A DNA stretch of 12,057 nucleotides from a virus (lineage: Duplodnaviria > Heunggongvirae > Uroviricota > Caudoviricetes), in the IMG/VR virus record IMGVR_UViG_2558860274_000002; one strand, 5' to 3'. Shown here piece after piece: positions 1-12,057 of this stretch. Position numbers and translations under genes: made by a program. Position 1 is the stretch's first letter; every line of letters starts with the position of its first letter. A model generated the notes under the pieces. The model made no database searches. It was not told the origin of the DNA and worked only from the letters and a program-made list of their open reading frames with translations.

Positions 1-219
1 TTACATCCACATAATTTGCTGCCCTGACGGCAACGGGTGCGGCCTTACGGCGTGGACTTCTCCCGGCTTCACGATGTATCGCTGTACCGACTCATAAGTG
101 ATGAACGTGGCGCTGCAATTCACGTTCTGGCACTGGTGATAACGCTCTTTTGTCGTGTCAGTGATATAGCGGCTTGTACGCGCATGTGCGGCATGCTGGC
201 ATAAAGGACAATGAAACAT
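1..219 (-). CDS. ogr: Ogr, P2-type late-gene transcriptional activator (Cys4 zinc finger), 72 aa
   Basis: Minus-strand ORF; translation from the internal Met (MFHCPLCQHAAHARTSRYITDTTKERYHQCQNVNC...) gives 72 aa, the length and N-terminus I recall for P2 Ogr. Has the C-x2-C...C-x4-C zinc-binding pattern. RBS-like GGAAGAGG lies 8 nt upstream of this ATG. The 93-aa extension to nt 282 is probably not translated. Confidence 0.9.
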   Translation of the reverse strand: MFHCPLCQHAAHARTSRYITDTTKERYHQCQNVNCSATFITYESVQRYIVKPGEVHAVRPHPLPSGQQIMWM

Positions 220-300
220 CGCGAGCACCTCTTCCGGTTTTGTTGATGGTGCCATTTTAGTTAATTTATCCTTATAAAACAAACAGATAAATAAAAGATA
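220..300 (-). promoter_or_regulatory. Candidate ogr promoter in the D-ogr intergenic region
   Basis: 82-nt AT-rich spacer between D stop (301) and ogr start (219). On the minus strand there is a possible -35 TTGTTT (282..277), 17-nt spacer, and -10 TAAAAT (259..254). Hexamers picked by eye only. Confidence 0.3.
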
Positions 301-1464
301 TCACTCATCATCTTCTGTTTCGTACTCCACATCAGAAAGCCTTACCTCAAGTTCTAAGGACGTCGTGAAGCCGCTATTATTCAGAAAATGTGTCACCTTA
401 GTGATTGTCCAGTCCTGCTCGTCTATGACGCGCTTAAAGCCTGATACTTTGACCGGCGTTTCCGTGTAAATATCTGCCCGACCAGTAGCCAGACTGATGG
501 AGAACTCCGCAACGCCCCGTTGCAGCTTATCCCACTTCGCCTGAGCGGCGCGCATGGCCTGCGCTTTCGTGGCATATACCGTGGTCAGGGCAAAAACGTT
601 GTCAGCCTCACCTGCCATGTATTCACCTTCGCGCGCTTCCGGTACTTTTGGCGCTTTCTTCTGCGTGACTGGTTTCGCTTTCGGGTGTTCCAGTGCGCGC
701 AGGTGTTTCTCTTTCTTTTTGCGTTTCAGTTTTACCTTCTGCTTTTGCGGCTTCGGGTCTTTGGTGTGTAACCACTTTGCCGTTACGCCGGTGTAAGCTC
801 CACGGTCAGCAATCGCAAAATGATGACGGTCGCCGTCGCTGCGGGTGATGGTAATCTGCGGGATTTTTTTACCACTGGCCGTCACCCCCTGCCCCGCTTT
901 GAGAAACAACAGTTTTCCCATTTTTACAGAGACCTCACCGCCGTTGCGTTCTGCAAGACGGGTCAGGAATTTCGCATCAGACTCCTGCGACTGGTCGATG
1001 TGCGGGATTTTAATTCCGGCCAGTGACGGAGCGACACTGGCTTCCAGTCTGTTACGGGAGGCTATCGCCTCAACAATCGCACCGAGCGTGGTGTCATGCC
1101 AGGAGCCTTCACGGCGGGAATTGAGCGTCCCGCGGAAATCTGCACTCCGGGCGCGGATGGTAACCACATCCGGCGCGCCCCGGTGTTCAACCTCATCAAC
1201 GGTAAATTTCCCTTTGCATACCAGGGCAAAACCTTTCCAGCCGATATACACCGTCAGGACAGCGCCACGAACCGGCAGCCCGACCTGCCCGTCGGCATCG
1301 TTCAGTTCAATATCAAGCTGGTCAGCCTCAAAGCCCCGGTTATCCGTCAGGGTCATGCTCATCAGACGGTCGCTGATATTGCCGGTAATATCCCTGCTGT
1401 CGAGCATCAGCATGTAATCCGGTGTCAGCGTACTGCCTGCATCAAATGTCAGCGCATCCAGCAT
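301..1464 (-). CDS. D: Tail protein gpD (P2 late gene D family), 387 aa
   Basis: Minus-strand ORF; start at the internal Met (MLDALTFDAGSTLTPDYMLMLDSRDITG...) gives 387 aa, the length I recall for P2 gpD. Contains the lysine-rich stretch KDPKPQKQKVKLKRKKKEKH. G-rich RBS-like run directly upstream of the ATG at 1464. Immediately followed by ogr, as in P2. Confidence 0.9.
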   Translation of the reverse strand: MLDALTFDAGSTLTPDYMLMLDSRDITGNISDRLMSMTLTDNRGFEADQLDIELNDADGQVGLPVRGAVLTVYIGWKGFALVCKGKFTVDEVEHRGAPDVVTIRARSADFRGTLNSRREGSWHDTTLGAIVEAIASRNRLEASVAPSLAGIKIPHIDQSQESDAKFLTRLAERNGGEVSVKMGKLLFLKAGQGVTASGKKIPQITITRSDGDRHHFAIADRGAYTGVTAKWLHTKDPKPQKQKVKLKRKKKEKHLRALEHPKAKPVTQKKAPKVPEAREGEYMAGEADNVFALTTVYATKAQAMRAAQAKWDKLQRGVAEFSISLATGRADIYTETPVKVSGFKRVIDEQDWTITKVTHFLNNSGFTTSLELEVRLSDVEYETEDDE

Positions 1465-1489
1465 TATCCCGCCCCCGTCATACCCGTGA

Positions 1490-1759
1490 ATGAAAACCGC
1501 AATGGTGCTCAAGGCAAAAGACGTTATTCGCCGTGGCTGTCTGGAATATGACGTCAGCGCCACCGACATCACCAGCTCGTTTATGGCTATCCGCAAGACC
1601 ATGACCAGCAGCGGACGCAGCGCCACCTATGAGGCCAGCCGCAGCGAGGAAGCCAGCCACGCCGACCTCGCCTGGGCGACCATGCACGCCCTGTTAAATG
1701 AGCCACTCACCGCCGGTATCAGCACCCCGCTGACATCCACCATTCTGGAGTTTTACTGA
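1490..1759 (+). pseudogene. Probable 3' remnant of terminase ATPase gene P (truncated, 89 codons)
   Basis: ORF directly upstream of Q on the same strand, with its TGA stop (1757-1759) overlapping the Q ATG (1759-1761) in an ATGA arrangement, as expected for P-Q coupling. The frame is closed by a TGA at 1487-1489, so at most 89 codons remain versus roughly 590 expected for P. Identity as P is inferred from position only; I cannot recall the P C-terminal sequence. Confidence 0.4.
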
Positions 1760-2793
1760 TGAGCAAGAAAAAAGGGAAAACACCGCAACCTGCGGCAAAA
1801 AAAATGACCGCCAGCGCCCCGAAAATGGAGGCATTCACCTTTGGTGAGCCGGTGCCGGTGCTCGACCGCCGTGACATTCTGGATTACGTCGAATGTATCA
1901 GTAACGGCAGATGGTATGAGCCGCCGGTCAGCTTTACCGGTCTGGCAAAAAGCCTGCGTGCTGCCGTGCATCACAGCTCACCGATTTACGTCAAACGCAA
2001 TATTCTGGCTTCAACGTTTATTCCGCATCCGTGGCTTTCCCAGCAGGATTTCAGCCGCTTTGTGCTGGATTTTCTGGTGTTCGGCAATGCGTTTCTGGAA
2101 AAGCGTTACAGTACCACCGGTAAGGTCATCAGACTGGAAACCTCACCGGCAAAATATACCCGCCGTGGTGTGGAAGAGGATGTTTACTGGTGGGTGCCGT
2201 CCTTCAACGAGCCGACAGCCTTCGCGCCCGGCTCCGTGTTTCACCTGCTGGAGCCGGATATTAATCAGGAGCTGTACGGTCTGCCGGAATATCTCAGCGC
2301 CCTTAATTCTGCCTGGCTGAATGAGTCGGCCACGCTGTTCCGCCGCAAGTATTACGAAAATGGCGCACATGCCGGATACATCATGTACGTCACTGATGCC
2401 GTGCAGGATCGCAACGATATCGAAATGCTACGCGAAAACATGGTTAAGTCGAAAGGCCGCAATAACTTTAAAAATCTGTTTCTCTATGCCCCACAGGGGA
2501 AAGCCGACGGCATTAAAATTATCCCCCTCAGTGAAGTGGCGACGAAGGACGATTTTTTTAATATCAAAAAAGCCAGCGCCGCTGACCTGCTGGACGCGCA
2601 CCGCATCCCCTTTCAGTTGATGGGTGGCAAGCCGGAGAACGTCGGGTCGCTGGGTGATATAGAGAAAGTGGCAAAGGTCTTTGTCCGCAATGAGCTTATC
2701 CCGTTACAGGACAGGATCCGCGAGATAAACGGCTGGCTCGGTCAGGAGGTCATCCGCTTTAAAAACTACTCACTGGACACTGACAACGGCTGA
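1759..2793 (+). CDS. Q: Portal (capsid vertex) protein gpQ, 344 aa
   Basis: 344-aa ORF, the length I recall for P2 gpQ, transcribed toward the cos site as in P2. Start ATG overlaps the upstream ORF stop. Followed by a strong intrinsic terminator. Confidence 0.9.
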   Translation: MSKKKGKTPQPAAKKMTASAPKMEAFTFGEPVPVLDRRDILDYVECISNGRWYEPPVSFTGLAKSLRAAVHHSSPIYVKRNILASTFIPHPWLSQQDFSRFVLDFLVFGNAFLEKRYSTTGKVIRLETSPAKYTRRGVEEDVYWWVPSFNEPTAFAPGSVFHLLEPDINQELYGLPEYLSALNSAWLNESATLFRRKYYENGAHAGYIMYVTDAVQDRNDIEMLRENMVKSKGRNNFKNLFLYAPQGKADGIKIIPLSEVATKDDFFNIKKASAADLLDAHRIPFQLMGGKPENVGSLGDIEKVAKVFVRNELIPLQDRIREINGWLGQEVIRFKNYSLDTDNG

Positions 2794-2798
2794 ACATC

Positions 2799-2820
2799 GC
2801 CGCCTGTGGGCGGCTTTTTT
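2799..2820 (+). terminator. Rho-independent terminator downstream of Q
   Basis: GCCGCC (2799-2804), loop TGTG, GGCGGC (2809-2814), then a run of six T (2815-2820), starting 6 nt after the Q stop codon. Confidence 0.65.
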
Positions 2821-2962
2821 ACACCCCGCCATCACGCCCTCACACGCTCACCACCGCACAAAACAGCCCGCATACACACCAACGCCCCGGCGAACAATCT
2901 AAACGCCATCACAACGCGCTCAGACGCTGAAAAAATAAAATCAGCACCACCGCCAGCGCGCA

Positions 2963-2981
2963 GTGCTTTCCCCACCTCGCC
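2963..2981 (-). other. cos site: 19-nt P2/P4-type cohesive-end sequence (terminase cleavage site)
   Basis: Minus strand reads GGCGAGGTGGGGAAAGCAC, one mismatch from the P2/P4 cohesive end as I recall it (GGCGAGGCGGGGAAAGCAC). The flanking C/A-rich sequence 2821-2962 also resembles my recollection of the P2/P4 left-end sequence. Position between Q and the right-end genes is as expected. Confidence 0.7.
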
Positions 2982-3004
2982 CGCCCGCTTCGTGGGGCGG
3001 TTTT
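2981..3004 (+). terminator. Terminator-like GC hairpin abutting cos
   Basis: CCGCCC (2981-2986), 8-nt loop, GGGCGG (2995-3000), followed by TTTT (3001-3004). Function not established; may be part of the terminase recognition region instead. Confidence 0.3.
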
Positions 3005-3138
3005 AATGCAGGTGTAAATTCAGTCTAAATACATACCTGTCGGGTCATCAAGCTTGTGCGCTCACTCAATAAAACACATGCAAATAAATGCATATAGACA
3101 TGCGCTACCAACTTGCACTAGCCATGTACATCAGGTAA

Positions 3139-4971
3139 TTAACAACGTAATTCTGTACAATTAGCCCATTCTTCAGAAAAAACAGCATCTGAAGATTTTG
3201 GCCCTGGCCTTGCTTGATTAATTGAAATTCTTACAGGCAAATTAAATGCAGAACCAAATGCAACAGCATCACCTCTTGGTAAACCTGATATTTGTTTTAA
3301 GATTTGTTCATTACCGCTTTCCATTGCATATCTGAGAGCCTGTAAATCTCTTTCATTAGTCAAACGTAACGAAAACCAGTTTGAACACATTGCCAAAACA
3401 GTAGGAGAAAGCTCTGAGGGTCGCTGAGTACTGACAATTAAAGAGCATTTGAATTTCCTACCTTCTTTAGCAAGTCGTTCATATGCTTTAATCTGTGAGT
3501 CAATTTCAGCATAAGGGTCACGCAGGTAATGATGCGCTTCTTCCAACAAAAGTACCGTAGGATACGAACGTTCCTGCCCACGTCTAAATAGTATCTCAGC
3601 AAACATCTCCAACAATGCACTAAGTAACATTGGAGCATGATCTTGTGCCAAATTTTTCATATTAACTATATGAACATTCCAATCATTTTCTTGTCCTTTT
3701 TCCTTACCAAAGAAGTAATCAACTTCATCACTCATAGCTTTATCCCAATGCGTTCCACCATCTGCTAGCTCACCCCCTCCATTTAAATTAACAATAGATT
3801 TAAATCTTATATCCTCTGCAAGTTGTTGTATGATTTTTACCAATGGCAACACGTTACTAAAACCAAACGCGTCACGTTTACTTCCATTAGAACGGTCAGC
3901 AGCTACACATCCAAATTCAGCAACCAAAGTCGCTAAACTTTTAAACGGCGGCCATACATTCGTTCTTTTAAGACGTCTACGCCTTAATAAATCCAACCAC
4001 TCAGCCAATTTACTTTGATTTGTGTCACGACAATCATCATACAAAAGAAAAGTTTCACCATCATTTTTTTCCAAGTAAATATTACGGCTTTTAAAATGAG
4101 TCCGATTAATTGCACTTAATGCATTTCTTAATGCGGGCAATTGTGTTTTATCACTTGGTCTTAATAATTTAATTAACCCAGCAAAACCTAATGCCTGATA
4201 TGGTATCTTTTTATAACAATAATACTCTTCACTATATAGCTCACCCTTTTGCTGATTTTTTTCCAAACTATCAACATTTGGGGATTCCCCTAGAATAGTG
4301 TGCTTTACATTTGGAATACCTGTAAAAGCTTGCGCGTATTCACCATTTATGTCAAAAATAACTATTCTTGAGTTAGGGTATTTTTCAGAAACCTTCCTCG
4401 TTAACAAAGCATTGAAATTTGATTTACCATATCCTGTACTACCAAGAACGGCTAAGTGTCGCGACAATAATTTATCAACACTTGCAAATATCTTAACGGT
4501 TTTAGTTCGAGAATCCACACCTAATTCAACCGCTTTTGGGAGTTCTTCTTTATCAATACTATAAATGATGTTCAAAAAATCTGAAGTCAAAGGAACAGCA
4601 GAAGAACCCAATGCAGGTAAGCGCCAATCTTCTGATATAAAAACATAACCATTTAACTCCCTTTTCACAAAGCCAATTGCATAGGCGATAATTTGTCTTA
4701 GAGGTATATCAGCTAAATCAGATGTGCCTACATTTGCCTTATGCGCTTTATCCGCTTCAACAAATGCCATATCTGTCACTCTTGCGACAACTAATATATT
4801 ACCTGCATCGAACCCAATAAGATCTCCTGGTTGCGTTACTGAGCTCACCCCCTTTCTATGCGATGCTAATCTGCCTTGCAACCCCTCATGCAGGTTTATC
4901 CTAATTCTTTCCCCTTCTAATCCTACAACGTATCCAATAGCCGAGATTTCAGTAAGTTTAAAAAGGGACAT
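3139..4971 (-). CDS. herA: HerA-like (FtsK/HerA superfamily) ATPase, 610 aa; second gene of a SIR2-HerA-type defence operon
   Basis: Walker A LAVLGSTGYGKSN, Walker B TVLLLEEAHHYL, and the HerA/FtsK-typical LIVSTQRPSEL motif. Start taken at the internal Met (MSLFKLTEIS..., ATG at 4971) because AGGAGA lies 5 nt upstream and the ATG sits just inside the 3' end of the sir2-like gene. The ORF track's start at 5022 has no such support. AT-rich relative to phage core genes. Confidence 0.85.
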   Translation of the reverse strand: MSLFKLTEISAIGYVVGLEGERIRINLHEGLQGRLASHRKGVSSVTQPGDLIGFDAGNILVVARVTDMAFVEADKAHKANVGTSDLADIPLRQIIAYAIGFVKRELNGYVFISEDWRLPALGSSAVPLTSDFLNIIYSIDKEELPKAVELGVDSRTKTVKIFASVDKLLSRHLAVLGSTGYGKSNFNALLTRKVSEKYPNSRIVIFDINGEYAQAFTGIPNVKHTILGESPNVDSLEKNQQKGELYSEEYYCYKKIPYQALGFAGLIKLLRPSDKTQLPALRNALSAINRTHFKSRNIYLEKNDGETFLLYDDCRDTNQSKLAEWLDLLRRRRLKRTNVWPPFKSLATLVAEFGCVAADRSNGSKRDAFGFSNVLPLVKIIQQLAEDIRFKSIVNLNGGGELADGGTHWDKAMSDEVDYFFGKEKGQENDWNVHIVNMKNLAQDHAPMLLSALLEMFAEILFRRGQERSYPTVLLLEEAHHYLRDPYAEIDSQIKAYERLAKEGRKFKCSLIVSTQRPSELSPTVLAMCSNWFSLRLTNERDLQALRYAMESGNEQILKQISGLPRGDAVAFGSAFNLPVRISINQARPGPKSSDAVFSEEWANCTELRC

Positions 4972-6205
4972 TACCTTCTCCTTTAGAAAGATTAGCAATT
5001 GCTTCAACCAACTCATCAACAATATTATCTCGTGGAAAGAGCACAGGGTATGGTAGATGTTCTACGAAACTATTAAAATATGCCTTGCTTCCTCCCCCAA
5101 CTACAGTTACTTGATTGAAAGCCATATTTTTTAAAGTAACAATAGCTTTCTCAGCTTCCGAACCGCCACCCTTACTTACTTTGGCAATTGCTTCTTTCAA
5201 TTCAGGATAATATATAACAACATGGAAAGATGGATTCAGTAACGCGCCTAATATTATTCTATTTATATGATAATCACCGAAACCAAACCCATTTATGAAC
5301 AACGCTGTTTGAGGTTTCGAAATAAACTCCCCAAAACGTCTAAACATCTCTCCATAAACGAAGCCGATTGTATGGCTATATTTATTCGCCCCTGGATAAA
5401 TCAAATGTTGACCGCGATAAAAGTCATCTTTATTGATTATGTCATTAATATATTCATCATATGCTTGAGATGCACTAACTTCGTTAACAGTCAAGCTATC
5501 ATTTTGATACCACGTAAGTGAGCCATGTAATTTATAGAGATACGCATGATAATGTCCGAATCTTGCTTCGCCCTTCGCATTTACATTTCTGAAAGCCAAA
5601 TCAAAATTCTGGGGATAAAACTGCCGTGTATGTAGCCCAGAAAAACCATTAAACAACTGTATTCCTAAATCTTCTGCAGCCCACTCTAAGGCCAAATCAT
5701 AATTTGTTGTGAAAATTGCCGGAGCCGACTGACCGGGCTGTCTATTTGAAATTAATTTTGAAATTAACTCTTTGTGATATTTAAACGCATCTTTTTTACC
5801 CTGATTTTTCTCTCTAAACTGCTCTCCTGTTAATAATGCAGCCTTCGTAACCTCTTTATATAATGAACTTAATATCTTCCTGAATTCCTCCTCTTCATCT
5901 TCACATCGTCTAGTTTTAGCTACAGAAAGAAATTTAGTTGCTTCATCTATCAAAAGTTCAACATTGACCAAATTGTTATCAGAATCAATTTGCGAAACCA
6001 GAAGATATTTATCAATAAGTGCTCCCAAAAGCTCAGGGTAGTTTTGCTTAAACGATTTCCATACATCTTTCATCGTTTTCCCACCACAACCGACAGAAGC
6101 ACCAGCACCTAACAGAACGCCAACATTATCTAATTGACACAAGGAATAAACGTGAGAACGAAAATCATCCTCATTTAACTTGTTACCACCTTGATAAATC
6201 GACAT
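4958..6205 (-). CDS. sir2: SIR2-like domain protein (predicted NAD+-consuming effector), about 415 aa; first gene of the SIR2-HerA-type operon
   Basis: Rossmann-type glycine motif VLLGAGASVGCGG, then IFTTNYDLALEWA (Asn/Asp motif typical of prokaryotic defence SIR2 domains) and YLYKLHGSLTW (catalytic His-Gly). About 180 aa C-terminal extension. Start placed at the second ATG (6205) because AAGGA lies 5 nt upstream; the first ATG (6211) is an alternative. AT-rich. Confidence 0.85.
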   Translation of the reverse strand: MSIYQGGNKLNEDDFRSHVYSLCQLDNVGVLLGAGASVGCGGKTMKDVWKSFKQNYPELLGALIDKYLLVSQIDSDNNLVNVELLIDEATKFLSVAKTRRCEDEEEEFRKILSSLYKEVTKAALLTGEQFREKNQGKKDAFKYHKELISKLISNRQPGQSAPAIFTTNYDLALEWAAEDLGIQLFNGFSGLHTRQFYPQNFDLAFRNVNAKGEARFGHYHAYLYKLHGSLTWYQNDSLTVNEVSASQAYDEYINDIINKDDFYRGQHLIYPGANKYSHTIGFVYGEMFRRFGEFISKPQTALFINGFGFGDYHINRIILGALLNPSFHVVIYYPELKEAIAKVSKGGGSEAEKAIVTLKNMAFNQVTVVGGGSKAYFNSFVEHLPYPVLFPRDNIVDELVEAIANLSKGEGNVPF

Positions 6206-6211
6206 AAACAT

Positions 6212-6326
6212 CCTTTTACAAATTTTAAAATTAGCTAAGTTACTACATTAAAAATCAAATATTAGAAAAAGTCATTACTCATAATCACACAATAGATTCA
6301 TAGGGTTAGCATAGTCACAATAGCTA
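6212..6326 (-). promoter_or_regulatory. Probable promoter region of the SIR2-HerA operon
   Basis: 115-nt very AT-rich spacer between the A stop and the sir2 start. One candidate on the minus strand: -35 TTGATT (6258..6253), 17-nt spacer, -10 GCTAAT (6235..6230). Not validated. Confidence 0.3.
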
Positions 6327-8450
6327 TCATTGTTGATTATCAGCATCCTGTACATTGAAAATCGCGGTTGACTCGCCAACTATGCCTGCTCGTGTGTCTC
6401 CTTTGTTTGTACATTTACGTGATGCTTCTATTTTCAATGCCAGATTAAGCACTTTCAAGACCTCCGGGTCATTCCATTCGATAACACCGTCATCTACCAG
6501 ATTAAGCACTGCTGCGGCGTGCTCAGAAGGTGTGGGAGCCGGTAACGAAGTATCGCCACAGGTGAGCTTTCCACAGTTATTGACAGGACTCCGAGGCGCG
6601 GCGATGCCGCTTTTTAAAGTCAAAGGCTCAACGACCGGAACTTTCGACACAATGCGCCAGTCCGTCGTTCTGGTGATATGAATATGACGCGCGCCGAGAT
6701 GCGGCGCGTAAATGCCGACCACTCTCTCGACTTCTTCCTCGTACTCGTTAACTTCATCCGACGGACTACGGGCGACCCTGACAGTCTGACAATCGCGCGG
6801 GACATTTGCCCCACCCTGCGCGCTGATATACAACGCAAAATCACCACTGTCTGCGGCGGCGCGTGCAGCCTCGACGCGCTCGTCAAACTCATCAGCAATG
6901 CTGACGCCGCGAGGCAATTTGCGTAGTTCACGGTAAGCCCCCATTGTCGGCAGACCAACCGTTTTAAATTGTGGGATGCGCCACGTTGACGCCCATGCGG
7001 TAACAGCCGCAGCAGTGTCTTTCAGCGGTCTGCCGGTATCGTTATCGAGCTGACCATCCAGTGCATAGCCATCGATGTTTTTTGAGATGTATTTCGCGAT
7101 ATACCCCGCAGCACCGCCCTGGTTAAGGTGTTTTGCCTGAAAACGGTTTCGCGCGGCTCCTCTTTCGTCGCCATCCTCTTTGAGCGCATAGCGACGCATG
7201 ATTTCGATAATCTGGTTACGCTGGCGTGGATTACAAAAAAGCATCATATGCCAGTGCGGCGTTCCGTCGTGGTGTGGCTCGACGACACGCAAACCGTAGA
7301 CCTGTAAATCATTATCCTTGAATGCCGTGCGCATCAGGCTCCAGATATGGCAGAGATAACGCTGCGCATCCTTTGGATTAAATGCCTCATCGTTCCAGCC
7401 GTGATTTAGCTGGACGGTTTTACTTTCGCCTTTTCCGACCTGACGTGTCGGGTGATACTTTGACGGCGCGGTAAGCGTGATAAACATCCCCACATCACCC
7501 TCTGCGGCGGCGTAACGCTCAATACCGGCAATGGTGTTCATCAGCTCCATCCGGCGAATTTCAGGATTAGAAATACTGCCCATCACCTTACTGATAAGGT
7601 CGATGCGCTCGCCGGTTTCCCTGTTTTCAAGGTCACACGATTTAAGAAATTCCAGATTTGCCTGGCGGCGTGCACGCACATCACGAATGGCATGTTTACT
7701 GGCATAAGGAGAACGGTCTTTATTCACCTCCCCGACAGCAATCAGTAACGCCTCATGCCAGCGCATACGCTGGCCTTTGAGCTGATGAGTCCACCACTCA
7801 TCGTTAAACAGACGGGCAATGGCAGAATATGCCTGCCTCGTGGTCATCTGTCCTTTACGGTATTTTTTCCAGTAAAGCGGGGAAATATTGAAAGCACGTG
7901 CAGCGCCAGCAACATGACCATAGAGGTGAGCCTGCGCCTCATCCGTAAACAGCGATTCTTTTTCGCCATGTGCATCCACCCAGGCATCGCTGAGTTCCTC
8001 ATACATCATGAAAAGCTGCGATGAGATACGGGCGGCAAACTTTTTCAGCTCCTTGTCATTCATTCCCGGCAGGCGCGCATAGTGGTCACGCTCTGCCAGA
8101 AACAGCAACGACGCGTCGGTGTTCATTTCATGGCGCTGATTCACGCGCTCAATGCGCGGCCATAAACGACGCTGAAAAGTGGATGTGAGGAAATAAAACC
8201 CGTGCACCGGGCTTTTATTGCGCCGGATGTAGTCATAGCGTGAAGTAAACAGCGAGCGCAAAAAGTAAGGCAGGCGGTTAATCGTGGATAAAACACCTTG
8301 CACCTGACGCATCTCGTCACGTGTAAGAGGTCTTTCGCGCCCGACAGCCTCGCGTGGCGCGTTCCATGCATAAGCACCGGTAAACGCCTTACCGGTGCCT
8401 GCGGCAAATGCTGACGGAGGGACAAAACGCCCGGAGGCTTTAACGGCCAT
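6327..8450 (-). CDS. A: Replication initiation endonuclease gpA (rolling-circle HUH-type initiator), 707 aa
   Basis: Start at the internal Met (MAVKASGRFVPPSAFAAG..., ATG at 8450), which I recall as the P2 gpA N-terminus. HUH-type metal-binding motif PHWHMMLF and paired-tyrosine motif GYIAKYISK typical of rolling-circle initiators. My recollection is that P2 gpA is about 761 aa, so the C-terminus here may be shorter or divergent. Confidence 0.9.
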   Translation of the reverse strand: MAVKASGRFVPPSAFAAGTGKAFTGAYAWNAPREAVGRERPLTRDEMRQVQGVLSTINRLPYFLRSLFTSRYDYIRRNKSPVHGFYFLTSTFQRRLWPRIERVNQRHEMNTDASLLFLAERDHYARLPGMNDKELKKFAARISSQLFMMYEELSDAWVDAHGEKESLFTDEAQAHLYGHVAGAARAFNISPLYWKKYRKGQMTTRQAYSAIARLFNDEWWTHQLKGQRMRWHEALLIAVGEVNKDRSPYASKHAIRDVRARRQANLEFLKSCDLENRETGERIDLISKVMGSISNPEIRRMELMNTIAGIERYAAAEGDVGMFITLTAPSKYHPTRQVGKGESKTVQLNHGWNDEAFNPKDAQRYLCHIWSLMRTAFKDNDLQVYGLRVVEPHHDGTPHWHMMLFCNPRQRNQIIEIMRRYALKEDGDERGAARNRFQAKHLNQGGAAGYIAKYISKNIDGYALDGQLDNDTGRPLKDTAAAVTAWASTWRIPQFKTVGLPTMGAYRELRKLPRGVSIADEFDERVEAARAAADSGDFALYISAQGGANVPRDCQTVRVARSPSDEVNEYEEEVERVVGIYAPHLGARHIHITRTTDWRIVSKVPVVEPLTLKSGIAAPRSPVNNCGKLTCGDTSLPAPTPSEHAAAVLNLVDDGVIEWNDPEVLKVLNLALKIEASRKCTNKGDTRAGIVGESTAIFNVQDADNQQ

Positions 8451-8715
8451 ATGAGCCAAAAGCCTCAGAACAACGCTTGCTGAGTTGCTCAACCTGCGCG
8501 TTTAAATCAGCAAAAGACTTTGCGCTTCCGGTCAGAATATCGTGATGCATCAGGCCGGAAACGAGCTGGATTAATTTCGGGTAATAACCAACCACCGCCA
8601 GCCATTCCTGACCGGCGTTTTTACCGCTTTCCGCTCTCTTTTTCTCGTGGAGAATAAACTGAAAGCTGTCACTGGTAACGACATAACGTTCGCCAATTTC
8701 AATACGAATACTCAT
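8440..8715 (-). CDS. P2 orf83-like small protein (function unknown)
   Basis: 91-aa ORF in the orf80-83 position between B and A. Its stop overlaps the A start by 11 nt and its start overlaps the upstream gene's stop. Confidence 0.6.
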   Translation of the reverse strand: MSIRIEIGERYVVTSDSFQFILHEKKRAESGKNAGQEWLAVVGYYPKLIQLVSGLMHHDILTGSAKSFADLNAQVEQLSKRCSEAFGSYGR

Positions 8716-8936
8716 GCCGTTCTCCGGTAATGCTTGTTTTTTGCTTCAAAGACTGACTGGCAGGAAACACAACGCGTGGCTGACGGATAAGCTGCACGAC
8801 GGGCAGCAGGTATTGGCGCGTCACACTCTTCGCAAACCAGCGCAGAAACACCGCTATGTTTTACCCTTGCCGCGTTAATCTGGCGCTCCAGTAATTCAGC
8901 CTGTTGTTCCTGAATAAAATCTATGTTGTCCGGCAT
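8712..8936 (-). CDS. TraR/DksA-family C4 zinc-finger protein (P2 orf82-like)
   Basis: 74-aa ORF with CEEC-x17-CVSC, the C-x2-C-x17-C-x2-C spacing typical of TraR/DksA-family proteins. Start and stop codons overlap those of both neighbours. Confidence 0.7.
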   Translation of the reverse strand: MPDNIDFIQEQQAELLERQINAARVKHSGVSALVCEECDAPIPAARRAAYPSATRCVSCQSVFEAKNKHYRRTA

Positions 8937-9241
8937 TACCAGCTCCTTTTGTCGTTCAGCTTCTTAAATTCATCAGCGCAATAGCTGGCGATTTCTGTCG
9001 TTAATTTTGTCAGTTCATCCACGGATGAAATTTGCTTATGAAATACAGCGCGTTTAACAAGTAAATTGACCACATCAGACAGGAGGTTTAATTCATTCTG
9101 ATAAATCGCGATAACAGATTCAGTTATGTCGCGTTTTTCTTTATCAAGACAAAGTTGAATAAGAGACAAATCGCCATTTTTCATAACGGCGATTTTTAAG
9201 GCGTTATTCAGTAATACAACTGAATGAGAACAGGACATCAA
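8936..9241 (-). CDS. P2 orf81-like small protein (function unknown)
   Basis: 101-aa ORF, tightly coupled to both flanking ORFs in the early operon. No recognisable motif. Confidence 0.55.
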
Positions 9242-9462
9242 AGCACCTCCCCGCGAGACAATCCGATATTGTGAAATTTTTCCGACTCCTGACTGAGCAG
9301 CTCGACTATCTCCACGCGGGATAACTCCGCCTTTGTGATATGGCGAATCATGGCGTCAAGATGAGAAGAAAAGCGCGTCGCAGCGTCGGCCTGTGCTTCG
9401 GTTCTGGCCTGTTGCAGCAGTAATGCGTATTTACCGCACTGATTTTCAGAAACTGTATGCAT
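9238..9462 (-). CDS. P2 orf80-like small protein (function unknown)
   Basis: 74-aa ORF, first gene after B in the early operon. Its stop overlaps the start of the next ORF. Confidence 0.55.
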
Positions 9463-9525
9463 GACTTTCTCCAGGCAAAAAGAAGCCCCGCACGATTAAG
9501 TGCGTTAAAAACTCTGGTTAATTAC

Positions 9526-10026
9526 TTAATGCAGATATTGCTCTGGTTTTACCGACGTCAGAATTGTCGGTGCATACTCAAACAGGCTGAATAATTCACG
9601 TAATGCACGGAATAAAGCATCACGCCAGTAACATGACTCTTCATTAATTCGCCAGTATGGCTGGTTGAATTCTTTTTCAGTCAATCCGGCATGCATAAAT
9701 AAAGTACGACGCTGACTGACTGTTAAAAAACTAATATATGCATACTCACTTGCGCCAACCTGACGGCGTTTTGAGAATGCCCCACGCAATTCATCAATTG
9801 CACAAACCAGCCGTTCACGTTCGACGTCGTTCATTTCTTCAAAACGCATCGTTGCGTGACGCTGTTTTAACTGCGCATGAAAGCAAACCGTTAACCGTTC
9901 GCGCTCCATCATCTGATTATAATAATCACATGTATCCTGCCAGCGAGGGACGGCCAGATGCTTACCAATTATCCGGCGCATAGTTGCTGGCTGTTTTTCG
10001 ACGAGATTGAGCGTCATCACTGTCAT
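9526..10026 (-). CDS. B: Replication protein gpB (helicase-loader-type early protein), 166 aa
   Basis: 166-aa ORF, the length I recall for P2 gpB, in the expected position between orf78 and orf80. Confidence 0.85.
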   Translation of the reverse strand: MTVMTLNLVEKQPATMRRIIGKHLAVPRWQDTCDYYNQMMERERLTVCFHAQLKQRHATMRFEEMNDVERERLVCAIDELRGAFSKRRQVGASEYAYISFLTVSQRRTLFMHAGLTEKEFNQPYWRINEESCYWRDALFRALRELFSLFEYAPTILTSVKPEQYLH

Positions 10027-10259
10027 TTCCAGAACCTCCGGCTTTTCAGAAAGGTCAGAGCCTTTTTTAACGGACTCTGTTTTTTGGTGCGGATAATGAT
10101 TCCCTTGCGACCCTTCCCGTGGGTGATGGTGAAGTCAATCGCCCTGGGGCTTTCGTTACGCAATAACTGAGCAATACAACGAGGCTCGTTCATCCTTTCC
10201 ACCTTAAGCCGCACGGCCATGTCTTGATTTGCTGTAACTAATGCGATTTTTCCAGTCAT
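10023..10259 (-). CDS. P2 orf78-like small protein, 78 aa
   Basis: Starting at the internal Met (MTGKIALVTANQDMAVRLK...) gives exactly 78 aa. Stop overlaps the B start (ATGA-type). The longer 96-aa form in the ORF track would overlap cox even further. Confidence 0.6.
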   Translation of the reverse strand: MTGKIALVTANQDMAVRLKVERMNEPRCIAQLLRNESPRAIDFTITHGKGRKGIIIRTKKQSPLKKALTFLKSRRFWK

Positions 10260-10575
10260 GCCATTCTGTCGGAGCTTCATCAACCAGTTGGGCTGCGTAC
10301 TTGTCCCACTCACGGCGATTAATCCATAATTCAGCTTTCCCTCTTGGTTTTAATGGGTCTGTCATGTAGAAGGCTGGCAGCTTTCCTGCTTTAGCCATTT
10401 CAGCCACCGCGCGTGGTGTCTTACCGATGTAAAGAGCAAAACCTTCTTTCGACAGCAAATCAGATGGGCGCTCTGAAATCTGAATGCTTTTACGTTTGGC
10501 TTCATTTTCGAAACTTGCCTCATCGCTAGTTGGACAAGAAATTTCTACATTTGTCGTCACTTTGCTATCCTCCAT
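10204..10575 (-). CDS. cox: Cox-like excisionase / early transcriptional repressor (winged-HTH)
   Basis: First gene of the leftward early operon, divergent from C. The segment GFALYIGKTPRAVAEMAKAGKLPAFYMTDP resembles the Cox DNA-binding region as I recall it. Start uncertain: the ATG at 10575 has no RBS, whereas an in-frame GTG at 10560 is preceded by GGAGGA with a 7-nt spacer (118 aa). The ORF is longer than P2 Cox (91 aa) and overlaps the orf78 start. Confidence 0.65.
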   Translation of the reverse strand: MEDSKVTTNVEISCPTSDEASFENEAKRKSIQISERPSDLLSKEGFALYIGKTPRAVAEMAKAGKLPAFYMTDPLKPRGKAELWINRREWDKYAAQLVDEAPTEWHDWKNRISYSKSRHGRAA

Positions 10576-10668
10576 AAGATTTGCGATTCACCAACTGGAG
10601 CCATCTAGAGCCTTTTTGAGTGAATCACAAATTGCCAAGTAGCAATATAATTGGAGATTAGCAAAATT
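10576..10668. promoter_or_regulatory. Immunity switch region (divergent Pe/Pc-type promoters and operators) between cox and C
   Basis: 93-nt spacer between the divergent cox and C starts. Contains a 7-bp inverted repeat GATTCAC (10585-10591) / GTGAATC (10620-10626) and a TATAAT hexamer (10646-10651) on the plus strand. Operator assignment not made. Confidence 0.5.
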
Positions 10669-10968
10669 ATGTCAAGTGAACAAAGTGAGAAACTAAAGCT
10701 CATCCGTGAATCCGAACGCCTTAAAACTAAGGAACTTGCTGAATTAATTGGAATTAATTACTACACATATCATGGATATGAATCAGGAAAATCAAAAATG
10801 CCTATGGAAGCAGGTATGAAGCTGTTTAAGCATCCACGCTTTCGCAAGTATCGTGACTGGTTCATGTTTGATGAAACAGATCCAGCAGCTGGACAAATAG
10901 CCCCGGCTCTCGCACACATTGGGCAAGACTCAACAACCTTGCACCACTCAGACCAGAAGACTGGCTGA
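10669..10968 (+). CDS. C: Immunity repressor C (P2 C family), 99 aa
   Basis: From the ATG at 10669 the ORF is 99 aa, the P2 C length. C-terminal DPAAGQIAPALAHIGQD...SDQKTG closely resembles the P2 C C-terminus as I recall it. The ORF track's start at 10651 is a TTG and less likely. Confidence 0.85.
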   Translation: MSSEQSEKLKLIRESERLKTKELAELIGINYYTYHGYESGKSKMPMEAGMKLFKHPRFRKYRDWFMFDETDPAAGQIAPALAHIGQDSTTLHHSDQKTG

Positions 10969-11061
10969 CGATTTATTCAGCATATGTGTGTAGTAAATGT
11001 ACGAAAGAAAATTGCATTAATTTTCAAGTAGTAGAAGTAAACAGCGTCATCGGAGGGCTTT

Positions 11062-12057
11062 ATGTCTATTAAAAAGCTCGATGATGGTCGTTATGAAGTG
11101 GACGTCAGACCGCAGGGTGCAGATGGAAAACGTATCAGGCGGAAATTTAAAACTAAAGGTGAAGCTCAGGCATTCGAACGTCATGTACTGGTTAACTACC
11201 ACAACAAAGAGTGGTTGGAGAAACCAGCCGACCGCCGAACTCTTACAGAGTTGTTAGGTAGATGGTGGATATATCACGGAAAATCACATGAGCGTGGAGA
11301 TATTGAACGGGGGCGTTTAACGACAATAATCGCCAAATTTGCAGAAATGGGAGTGTCCAGAGCTGACCAGCTAACAAAGAAAACGATAACTGATTATCGC
11401 GTTGTAATGATGAACGATGGTCTAAAACCAGCCAGCGTAAATCGACATCTGGCAATAATGAGCGGGATGTTCACCAAGTTAATTGACGCCGGTGAATACC
11501 ACTCCCACAACCCGTTCCGTGAGATTAAACGGTTACGTGAAGCTGTTACGGAAATGGCTTTTTTGTCCAGTGAAGAGATTACGCGGCTGTTATCCATGCT
11601 TGATGGTGATGAATTAAATGCAACTCTGGTCTGCCTTTCTACTGGTGGACGCTGGAGTGAAGTGTCTAATTTAAAAGCTGAACACATCATTAACCAGATG
11701 GTTACGTTTATGAAAACTAAAAACGGAAAACGCAGGACAATTCCCGTTTCGCAGGACCTGATTAAACGGATCAAGACCAAAAATTCAGGCAGGCTTTTTA
11801 ATGCCAGTTACTACAAAGTGCGTAACGCTCTCAGGGAAGTAAAACCCGATTTACCTGACGGACAAGCAGTACATGTTTTGAGGCATACATTTGCCACACA
11901 TTTTATAATGAATGGAGGTAACATAATCACATTGCAGCGCATCCTGGGTCATTCTAACATTCAGCAAACTATGACCTACGCACACTTTGCACCGGATTTC
12001 TTACAAGATGCTGTGACTCTTAACCCGGTGTCAGGAATGTCCATAATGCGTCCATAA
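11062..12057 (+). CDS. int: Tyrosine integrase (P2 Int family), 331 aa
   Basis: N-terminus MSIKKLDDGRYEVDVRPQGADGKRIRRKF resembles P2 Int. Tyrosine-recombinase motifs HVLRHTFATHF and the catalytic Tyr context QTMTYAHF are present. GGAGGG RBS 4 nt upstream. Downstream of C on the same strand, as in P2. The stop codon is the last 3 nt of the window. Confidence 0.9.
   Translation: MSIKKLDDGRYEVDVRPQGADGKRIRRKFKTKGEAQAFERHVLVNYHNKEWLEKPADRRTLTELLGRWWIYHGKSHERGDIERGRLTTIIAKFAEMGVSRADQLTKKTITDYRVVMMNDGLKPASVNRHLAIMSGMFTKLIDAGEYHSHNPFREIKRLREAVTEMAFLSSEEITRLLSMLDGDELNATLVCLSTGGRWSEVSNLKAEHIINQMVTFMKTKNGKRRTIPVSQDLIKRIKTKNSGRLFNASYYKVRNALREVKPDLPDGQAVHVLRHTFATHFIMNGGNIITLQRILGHSNIQQTMTYAHFAPDFLQDAVTLNPVSGMSIMRP

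Follow-up and report, generated by a model that had tools for sequence, protein, structure and literature searches.

A defective P2-like prophage of Escherichia coli that kept its repressor and a SIR2-HerA defence cargo, and a deletion breakpoint shared among P2-like remnants

When a P2-like prophage loses the genes for making particles, does what is left serve the host, serve a helper phage, or merely wait to be lost? The question is raised by a 12,057-nucleotide stretch of viral DNA (IMG/VR record IMGVR_UViG_2558860274_000002; the whole stretch is called the window here), which an earlier note, made from the letters alone, had read as what is left of a P2-like prophage after a large internal loss, with defence genes as cargo, perhaps mobilisable in the manner of the satellite P4, or else domesticated as a defence island. 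We aligned the window to the P2 reference (NC_001895), called its genes from a listing of open reading frames (ORFs) together with Pfam and PADLOC, and found that it is a P2-family defective prophage of E. coli that has kept a repressor, an integrase, replication genes, cos and the defence pair SIR2-HerA. Taken together, the observations set out below make it highly probable that this is a defective prophage of the pro483 lineage acting as a chromosomally fixed island of immunity and defence.

Four blocks of the window are colinear with P2 at 93.8-98.1% identity (Table 1), and the order along it is ogr, D, P', Q, cos, HerA, SIR2, A, orf83/82/81/80, B, orf78, cox, C, int, so that the P2-map gene order and gene identities claimed earlier hold for ORFs, Pfam, PADLOC and alignment alike; identity to P2 is merely 66-70% across cox, C and int. 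The Pfam families found in the window are Ogr, GPD, Terminase_6C, portal, GPA, Cox and integrase. P2 nt 1492-22763 (21.3 kb, comprising most of P and then O to nearly all of U) have no counterpart in the window, which is why we call the element defective and not a phage. On the P2 map this block holds all four late promoters besides the genes for capsid, lysis and tail, and in the alignment the virion and lysis set P, O, N, M, L, X, Y, K and lysABC, as well as R, S, V, W, J, I, H, G, FI, FII, E, T and U, is unmatched in the window apart from the fragments listed in Table 1. The earlier statement that morphogenesis had been lost is therefore correct for these genes, but not for Q (the portal) and D, which are still complete. 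The start of D does lie 294 nt from the start of Q, and the window does begin at the ogr stop codon and end at the int stop codon, both as had been claimed. Of the tail operon upstream of D, the U remnant is the sole leftover. P' corresponds to P2 1491-1221, the tail of the nuclease domain, and has lost its promoter pP, while the late promoter of D, pF (P2 17555-17628), falls inside the deleted block; Q and D are likely to be silent leftovers, since both promoters are in the missing part. Because capsid, tail, lysis and terminase genes are gone, the element would be unable to make particles or to lyse the cell.

What the element does carry lies between A and cos/Q, that is, in the gpA-gpQ defence hotspot of P2 described by Rousset et al. 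2022 (PMC9122126), where a low-GC cargo takes the place of old/tin/orf91 and of the last 290 nt of A. Its two genes are adjacent in one operon and overlap by 14 nt, and both products are near-identical to the chains of PDB 8J4U (HerA to chain M over 610/610 aa, 1373 bits; SIR2 to chain A over 415/415 aa, 944 bits). These matches identify the cargo as the structurally solved E. coli SIR2-HerA system (PDB 8J4U, 8SU9 and related entries), from which we found no difference in the window pair; only the context, a defective prophage, is particular. By its near-identity to the characterised complex, the pair would be expected to protect through phage-triggered depletion of NAD+. Prophages that share the Q allele of the window hold many other cargos at the same hotspot. 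Moreover, Int, C, Cox, B, A, ori, cos, Q and D are all intact at the level of sequence. The functions predicted to remain active are the C repressor, which would give immunity to homoimmune P2-like phages, and SIR2-HerA, which would act by abortive infection; with both still acting, the element would work as an island of immunity and defence that is fixed in the chromosome. In principle, the set of Int, Cox, A, B, ori and cos might also permit excision, replication and packaging by a helper.

Several points weigh against reading the element as such an island. Gene activity at the locus is judged from sequence alone. The A protein, 98% identical to P2 A over residues 1-675 by blastp, is without the last 86 aa of P2 A and ends instead in 32 unrelated aa, and the D-ogr arm and the pflB flank are confirmed only in a sister element, that of strain 98-3133. 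Finally, the retained genes are as intact as those of complete prophages, P' and Q being identical to those of the intact prophage L154, so the deletion may be recent and the retention of these genes may not reflect selection.

Is the deletion real? The junction has a 3-nt microhomology, AAT (1489-1491), and was not present in 5,426 complete E. coli genomes, in IMG/VR or in GTDB representative genomes; the two contigs that bear it, L027 and L028, were located solely through an exact look-up of the SIR2 protein. L028, from an isolate (GCA_027566075.1, 11,737 bp), is 100% identical to window 1423-12057, and L027, a metagenome scaffold, is 98.9% identical with 0 gaps; both read through the same junction and continue at one end beyond int into pflA, and at the other end both break off after 52-66 nt of the D side, a probable sign that D-ogr occurs more than once in these genomes. 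This abrupt stop is what speaks for an artefact of assembly or windowing, in which the source would hold a complete prophage with D-ogr misjoined to P'. We nevertheless find an artefact barely credible, because two independent assemblies that differ from one another at 113 positions (1.1% divergence elsewhere) carry the identical junction, because a 3-nt overlap cannot make an assembler join contigs, and because comparable deletions occur in closed genomes; the view of the earlier note, that a P2-like prophage carrying defence genes truly lost an internal segment, is thus supported both by the colinearity with P2 and by the isolate and metagenome contigs. Alternatively, the element could be a recent and selectively neutral deletion product heading for loss, its intactness reflecting only the short time since the deletion. 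We regard this as possible but rather unlikely. It would account for the absence of indels against complete prophages over 10.5 kb, for the identity of P' and Q to those of an intact prophage, and for the rarity of a junction seen in 0/5,426 complete genomes and in two draft or metagenome contigs. However, 113 positions differ between the two copies that share the junction, so the deleted element has persisted through several recombination patches, and the cargo is invariant between them. In fact, Q and A-to-B (window 1500-3000 and 6500-10000) account for every one of the 113 mismatches between the window and L027, the cargo, cox-C-int and the pflA flank having none, and the host flanks of the two copies are identical (0 mismatches in 1,102 nt). 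These mismatch patches point to repeated gene conversion by other P2-like phages, and the pattern fits a single deletion event, inherited vertically among closely related hosts and overlaid by patches of gene conversion; we infer that homologous recombination still trades sequence between the element and other P2-like phages. Neutral decay is also at odds with a survey that found defective P2-like regions to keep defence genes nearly identical to those of intact prophages, and that leaves open whether such regions are domesticated or still exchange their cargo (PMC13586616, NAR 2026). The fixed, domesticated defence island that the earlier note had offered as its alternative matches this published picture.

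The remaining explanation is the one that the earlier note had put forward as speculation, namely that the element is a helper-dependent 'mini-P2' satellite that excises with its own Int and Cox, replicates with A and B from ori and has its cos cut by a helper terminase, to be packaged with multimers going into full-size heads or monomers into heads of P4 size. The cis and trans parts are all there (int, cox, A, B, ori, cos, ogr), the element with its att arms measures about 12.3 kb, close to the roughly 11.6 kb of P4, and the layout ogr-D-^P'-Q-cos-cargo-A...int (a caret marks a break here and below) recurs in the window and in 98-3133 (both at pflB/pflA) and in K_EC180 (fieF/cpxP, 11.2 kb). 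Like the window element, P4 has a P2-type cos, an integrase and a dependence on a helper for any packaging; P4 differs in its alpha primase, its sid, psu, delta and epsilon genes and its immunity RNA, whereas the replication and immunity genes of the window are P2's own, and its early operon is governed by the element's own C repressor. The absence of a sid-like gene had been noted before and is borne out: neither alpha, sid, psu, delta nor epsilon was found in the window in the ORF listing or by Pfam, every non-overlapping ORF of at least 90 aa in it is attributable to P2 genes or to SIR2-HerA, and no Rfam family matched there. P2-type prophages are not known to be inducible by the SOS response. 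Moreover, no copy of the junction occurs at another site in complete E. coli genomes or in the viral collection IMG/VR, and the sole two known copies have identical host flanks. The recurrent layout arose by independent deletions with different left ends and not by the spread of one element. Remnants of like architecture span 10-20 kb without clustering at P4 size, so an argument for packaging from size fails, and about 12 kb is simply what removal of the late genes leaves. With no P4-type gene, no copy elsewhere and identical flanks, the mobilisable reading is unsupported, and we consider a mini-P2 very improbable.

The fixed defence island thus remains our preferred reading, and its ancestry can be traced with some precision. 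Escherichia phage pro483 (NC_028943, Peduovirus pro483) has Int, C, Cox and Q proteins 100% identical to those of the window and an A protein 96.6% identical over aa 1-678; it differs in its cargo, a DUF4238 protein, and in the genes from the N-terminal 501 codons of P through U, which the window is without. A complete prophage in E. coli A17 has the same integrase, pflA site and SIR2-HerA cargo, and matches window 1489-12057 at 98.6% identity with no indels. A sister remnant in the O157:H16 strain 98-3133 lies between pflB and pflA with both att junctions present, and comparison with the empty site of K-12 places the att core GTCAGTTATTGGT at pflA codons 2-6. As to the check for att sites and a host gene that the earlier note had called for, attL and pflA were found next to int in L028, with the core about 95 nt past the window end, and on the ogr side the junction, some 110 nt outside window position 1, was observed in 98-3133 only (the loci for these observations are L028 in reverse complement and L023 3860-3895 and 16912-16990). 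Neither att core is contained in the window, and the claim that it spans the entire element does not quite hold; the element is slightly longer. In A17, 98-3133 and L028 alike, pflA begins 31 nt after int. Prophages of this type integrate in the first pflA codons, replacing the pflA ATG and the region upstream, so that the annotated PflA gains a 20-aa phage-derived N-terminus (265 aa vs 246 aa) and the element separates pflA from pflB. On this evidence, a P2-like (Peduovirus) prophage of the pro483 lineage sits in the E. coli chromosome at the pflA 5' end, and a single illegitimate deletion would have joined the 3' end of the tail gene U to the terminase gene P; in an alternative route, a second small deletion would have been nested on a remnant like that of 98-3133. 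Either route would have removed the same 21.3 kb.

Table 1. Features of the window and its colinear blocks with P2 (NC_001895), in window coordinates.
Feature	Position	Strand	Match or remark
Block matching P2 24254-22764	1-1491		ogr, D, last 27 nt of U; 96.7%
Block matching P2 1491-1	1489-2981		P 3' end, Q, cosL
Block matching P2 33593-33546	2963-3010		cosR
Block matching P2 30029-26277	6455-10207		A through end of cox
ogr, late-gene activator, 72 aa	1..219	-	Pfam Ogr_Delta E=1.1e-21; stop codon at 1-3
D, tail/baseplate hub gene, 387 aa, complete	301..1464	-	Pfam Phage_GPD
U remnant, last 27 nt	1465..1491	-	alignment to P2 and L004 reaches 1491
Deletion junction	1488-1491		U 3' end joined to P codon ~501
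P', last 89 codons of terminase large subunit P	1490..1759	+	Pfam Terminase_6C positions 93-154/155
Q, portal protein, 344 aa, complete	1759..2793	+	Pfam Phage_portal; 100% identical to pro483 Q
tQ-like intrinsic terminator past Q	2799..2814	+	P2 tQ annotated at equivalent position
cos, 19-nt cohesive-end sequence GGCGAGGTGGGGAAAGCAC (- strand reading)	2963..2981	.	1 mismatch to P2
Low-GC cargo, no P2 homology	3011..6454	-	33-39% GC vs ~52% in flanks
HerA-type ATPase, 610 aa	3139..4971	-	PADLOC HerA, full-length, E=2.5e-277
SIR2-family NADase, 415 aa	4958..6205	-	PADLOC SIR2, full-length, E=1.2e-189
A, rolling-circle replication initiator, 707 aa	6327..8450	-	Pfam Phage_GPA E=1.9e-124
ori, 41-mer around A nick site, nick ~6592	6572..6612	-	identical to P2 29872-29912
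orf83	8440-8715	-	ORF; P2-colinear, 98.1%
orf82, zinc-finger	8712-8936	-	ORF; P2-colinear, 98.1%
orf81	8936-9241	-	ORF; P2-colinear, 98.1%
orf80	9238-9462	-	ORF; P2-colinear, 98.1%
B, replication protein, 166 aa	9526..10026	-	98.2% identical to pro483 B; homologues: PF26815 Phage_RepB
orf78 homologue, 56 aa	10023..10193	-	colinear with P2 26291-26461
cox, excision factor and Pc repressor, 123 aa	10204..10575	-	Pfam Phage_Cox E=3e-29; 100% to pro483
Divergent promoter-like pair, Pe/Pc position	10624..10675	.	between cox and C
C, immunity repressor, 99 aa	10669..10968	+	100% identical to pro483 ORF2
int, tyrosine integrase, 331 aa, pflA-specific	11062..12057	+	Pfam Int_N and Phage_integrase; 100% to pro483

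Among the features of Table 1, the promoter-like pair at the Pe/Pc position accounts for two of the window's four best sigma-70 matches (10/12 each), and the P2 Pe and Pc are co-located with it; homologues of the orf80-orf83 group bear DUF5405, zf-dskA_traR and DUF2732. The C-terminus of A after about residue 675 differs among the window, pro483 and P2 (window 6327-6454), and even in A17, whose prophage is complete in other respects, PGAP flags the window-type A allele as incomplete; the variable boundary between hotspot and cargo appears to take in the 3' end of A. The two late genes that remain are common in public collections, with the exact D protein present in 7,144 collection blocks and the Q allele in 21,017, and look-ups with either were too unspecific to lead to the junction.

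P' opens with an in-frame ATG immediately after the junction and is called as a gene in 794 public-collection blocks, across which this 89-aa ORF adjoins many different left-hand neighbours. Among P2-like remnants, at least 13 distinct deletions were found to share their right end at one nucleotide of P, the first of TACAC(G/A)CCGGAAATG, which is P2 nt ~1502 or position 18990 of the A17 locus (loci L003-L007, L010-L012, L023, L152, L163-L167 and L169). Their left partners are lysC, S, M, J, I/J, H (two alleles), FI (two positions), T, the T/U spacer, U and P itself. Microhomology at these junctions is 0-4 nt and always inside TACA, and the zero-homology case, that of 98-3133, puts the break between C and T (...ATCCGC^TACACGCCGG). 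Part of this sample was ascertained through the 89-aa P' ORF; 98-3133, K_EC180 and seven further genomes came from BLAST without that filter. As a control, 201-nt windows were compared with complete E. coli genomes and records with partial (<80%) coverage were counted: at the site itself (A17 18890-19090) 20 of 1,617 records were partial, as against 3 of 1,528 in a window 300 nt upstream (A17 18590-18790) and 5 of 1,550 at the P/Q boundary (A17 19150-19350). The prophages that share the breakpoint fall into three types by integrase and att site (yegQ-yegS, pflB-pflA and fieF-cpxP) and carry many cargos; because integrase types and cargos vary and the P'+Q sequences of the remnants are not monophyletic, we take the deletions to be independent, and a single origin of the right-hand side is rejected. 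Other endpoints within P also occur (FG92-1, L008, L037/L148 and 700481). Additional internal deletions besides the P site were observed in L011, L005 and L165. L011, for instance, has a D/U'^sheath junction, and in L005 another junction lies 86 nt to the left of the P site, which indicates that decay proceeds in several steps. The junction of the window sits 11 nt right of the recurrent breakpoint; it could be an independent event or a trimmed product of the same break, and it could also have arisen when a remnant like that of 98-3133, at the same att site, lost another 466 nt in a second deletion.

Several explanations for the shared position were tried and rejected. The site is unlike the P2 ori nick made by the HUH-type nickase gpA (GCGCCTCG^GAGTCC) and shares no k-mer of at least 9 with the A region. 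It is not a mosaic or recombination boundary, as divergent P genes are equally divergent on either side. No IS element was found at the junction, and the 975 nt beside the site in L010 is another tail-fibre allele. Nor is there a strong hairpin: ACACGCCG pairs with CGGCGTGT 53 nt upstream, with a fold no better than shuffled sequence (z = -1.3 and +0.3). In a sample of 22 other Enterobacteriaceae species representatives with the motif, too few for a conclusion, P was intact in all. Literature searches found no described deletion hotspot in the P gene, and unlike the pattern seen here, PMC13586616 and PMC9122126 report no preferred breakpoint. At present we can only speculate that the recurrent breakpoint marks a site-specific DNA break rather than chance decay. 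A fixed, unresected end with crossovers within 4 nt would be compatible with a break that is staggered by 4 nt or protein-capped. The cause could be a host enzyme, for instance through type II topoisomerase subunit exchange, a transposase- or restriction-like cut or the nuclease of a rival element, and a polar fork stall with template switching would fit as well. Gyrase makes 4-bp 5' overhangs (PMC6379681); quinolone-type gyrase cleavage prefers a G after the cut, and the P site has no such G. It is conceivable, though we would not expect it, that a break at this site repeatedly disarms P2-like prophages while sparing Q/cos through the cargo to int, yielding fixed defence islands.

Comparable decay is seen in other defective prophages. 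The E. coli B (REL606) element at yegQ-yegS is of the same kind, having kept int-C-cox-B-A-cargo-cos with its late genes partly deleted, but it differs in att site and integrase, several of its tail genes remain, and at its junction S'^Q' P is wholly lost and Q truncated, unlike in the window. This prophage (L193 15410-37348) has two internal deletions, D'^FII' and S'^Q', neither at the P site, and an ABC-three-component-type cargo at the same hotspot. K-12 carries a remnant of a P2-like prophage with ogrK and a D fragment. Published defective P2-like regions resemble the window in their near-identical defence genes, their incomplete mobility functions and a cargo between A and cos/Q. The cargo system, the hotspot and defective P2-like elements with conserved defence genes are thus already known, and the sole feature that a specialist might not expect is the breakpoint common to unrelated remnants.

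The element is one more example of temperate phages becoming fixed host defence islands, in which one deletion strips everything lethal or structural while a repressor, a working-looking integration and replication module, cos and an abortive-infection system stay. If a defined enzyme or DNA feature causes the recurrent breakpoint, the 'domestication' of E. coli prophages would be partly directed and not simply random decay, and the breakpoint in P would offer an easy way to count independent disarming events across genome collections.

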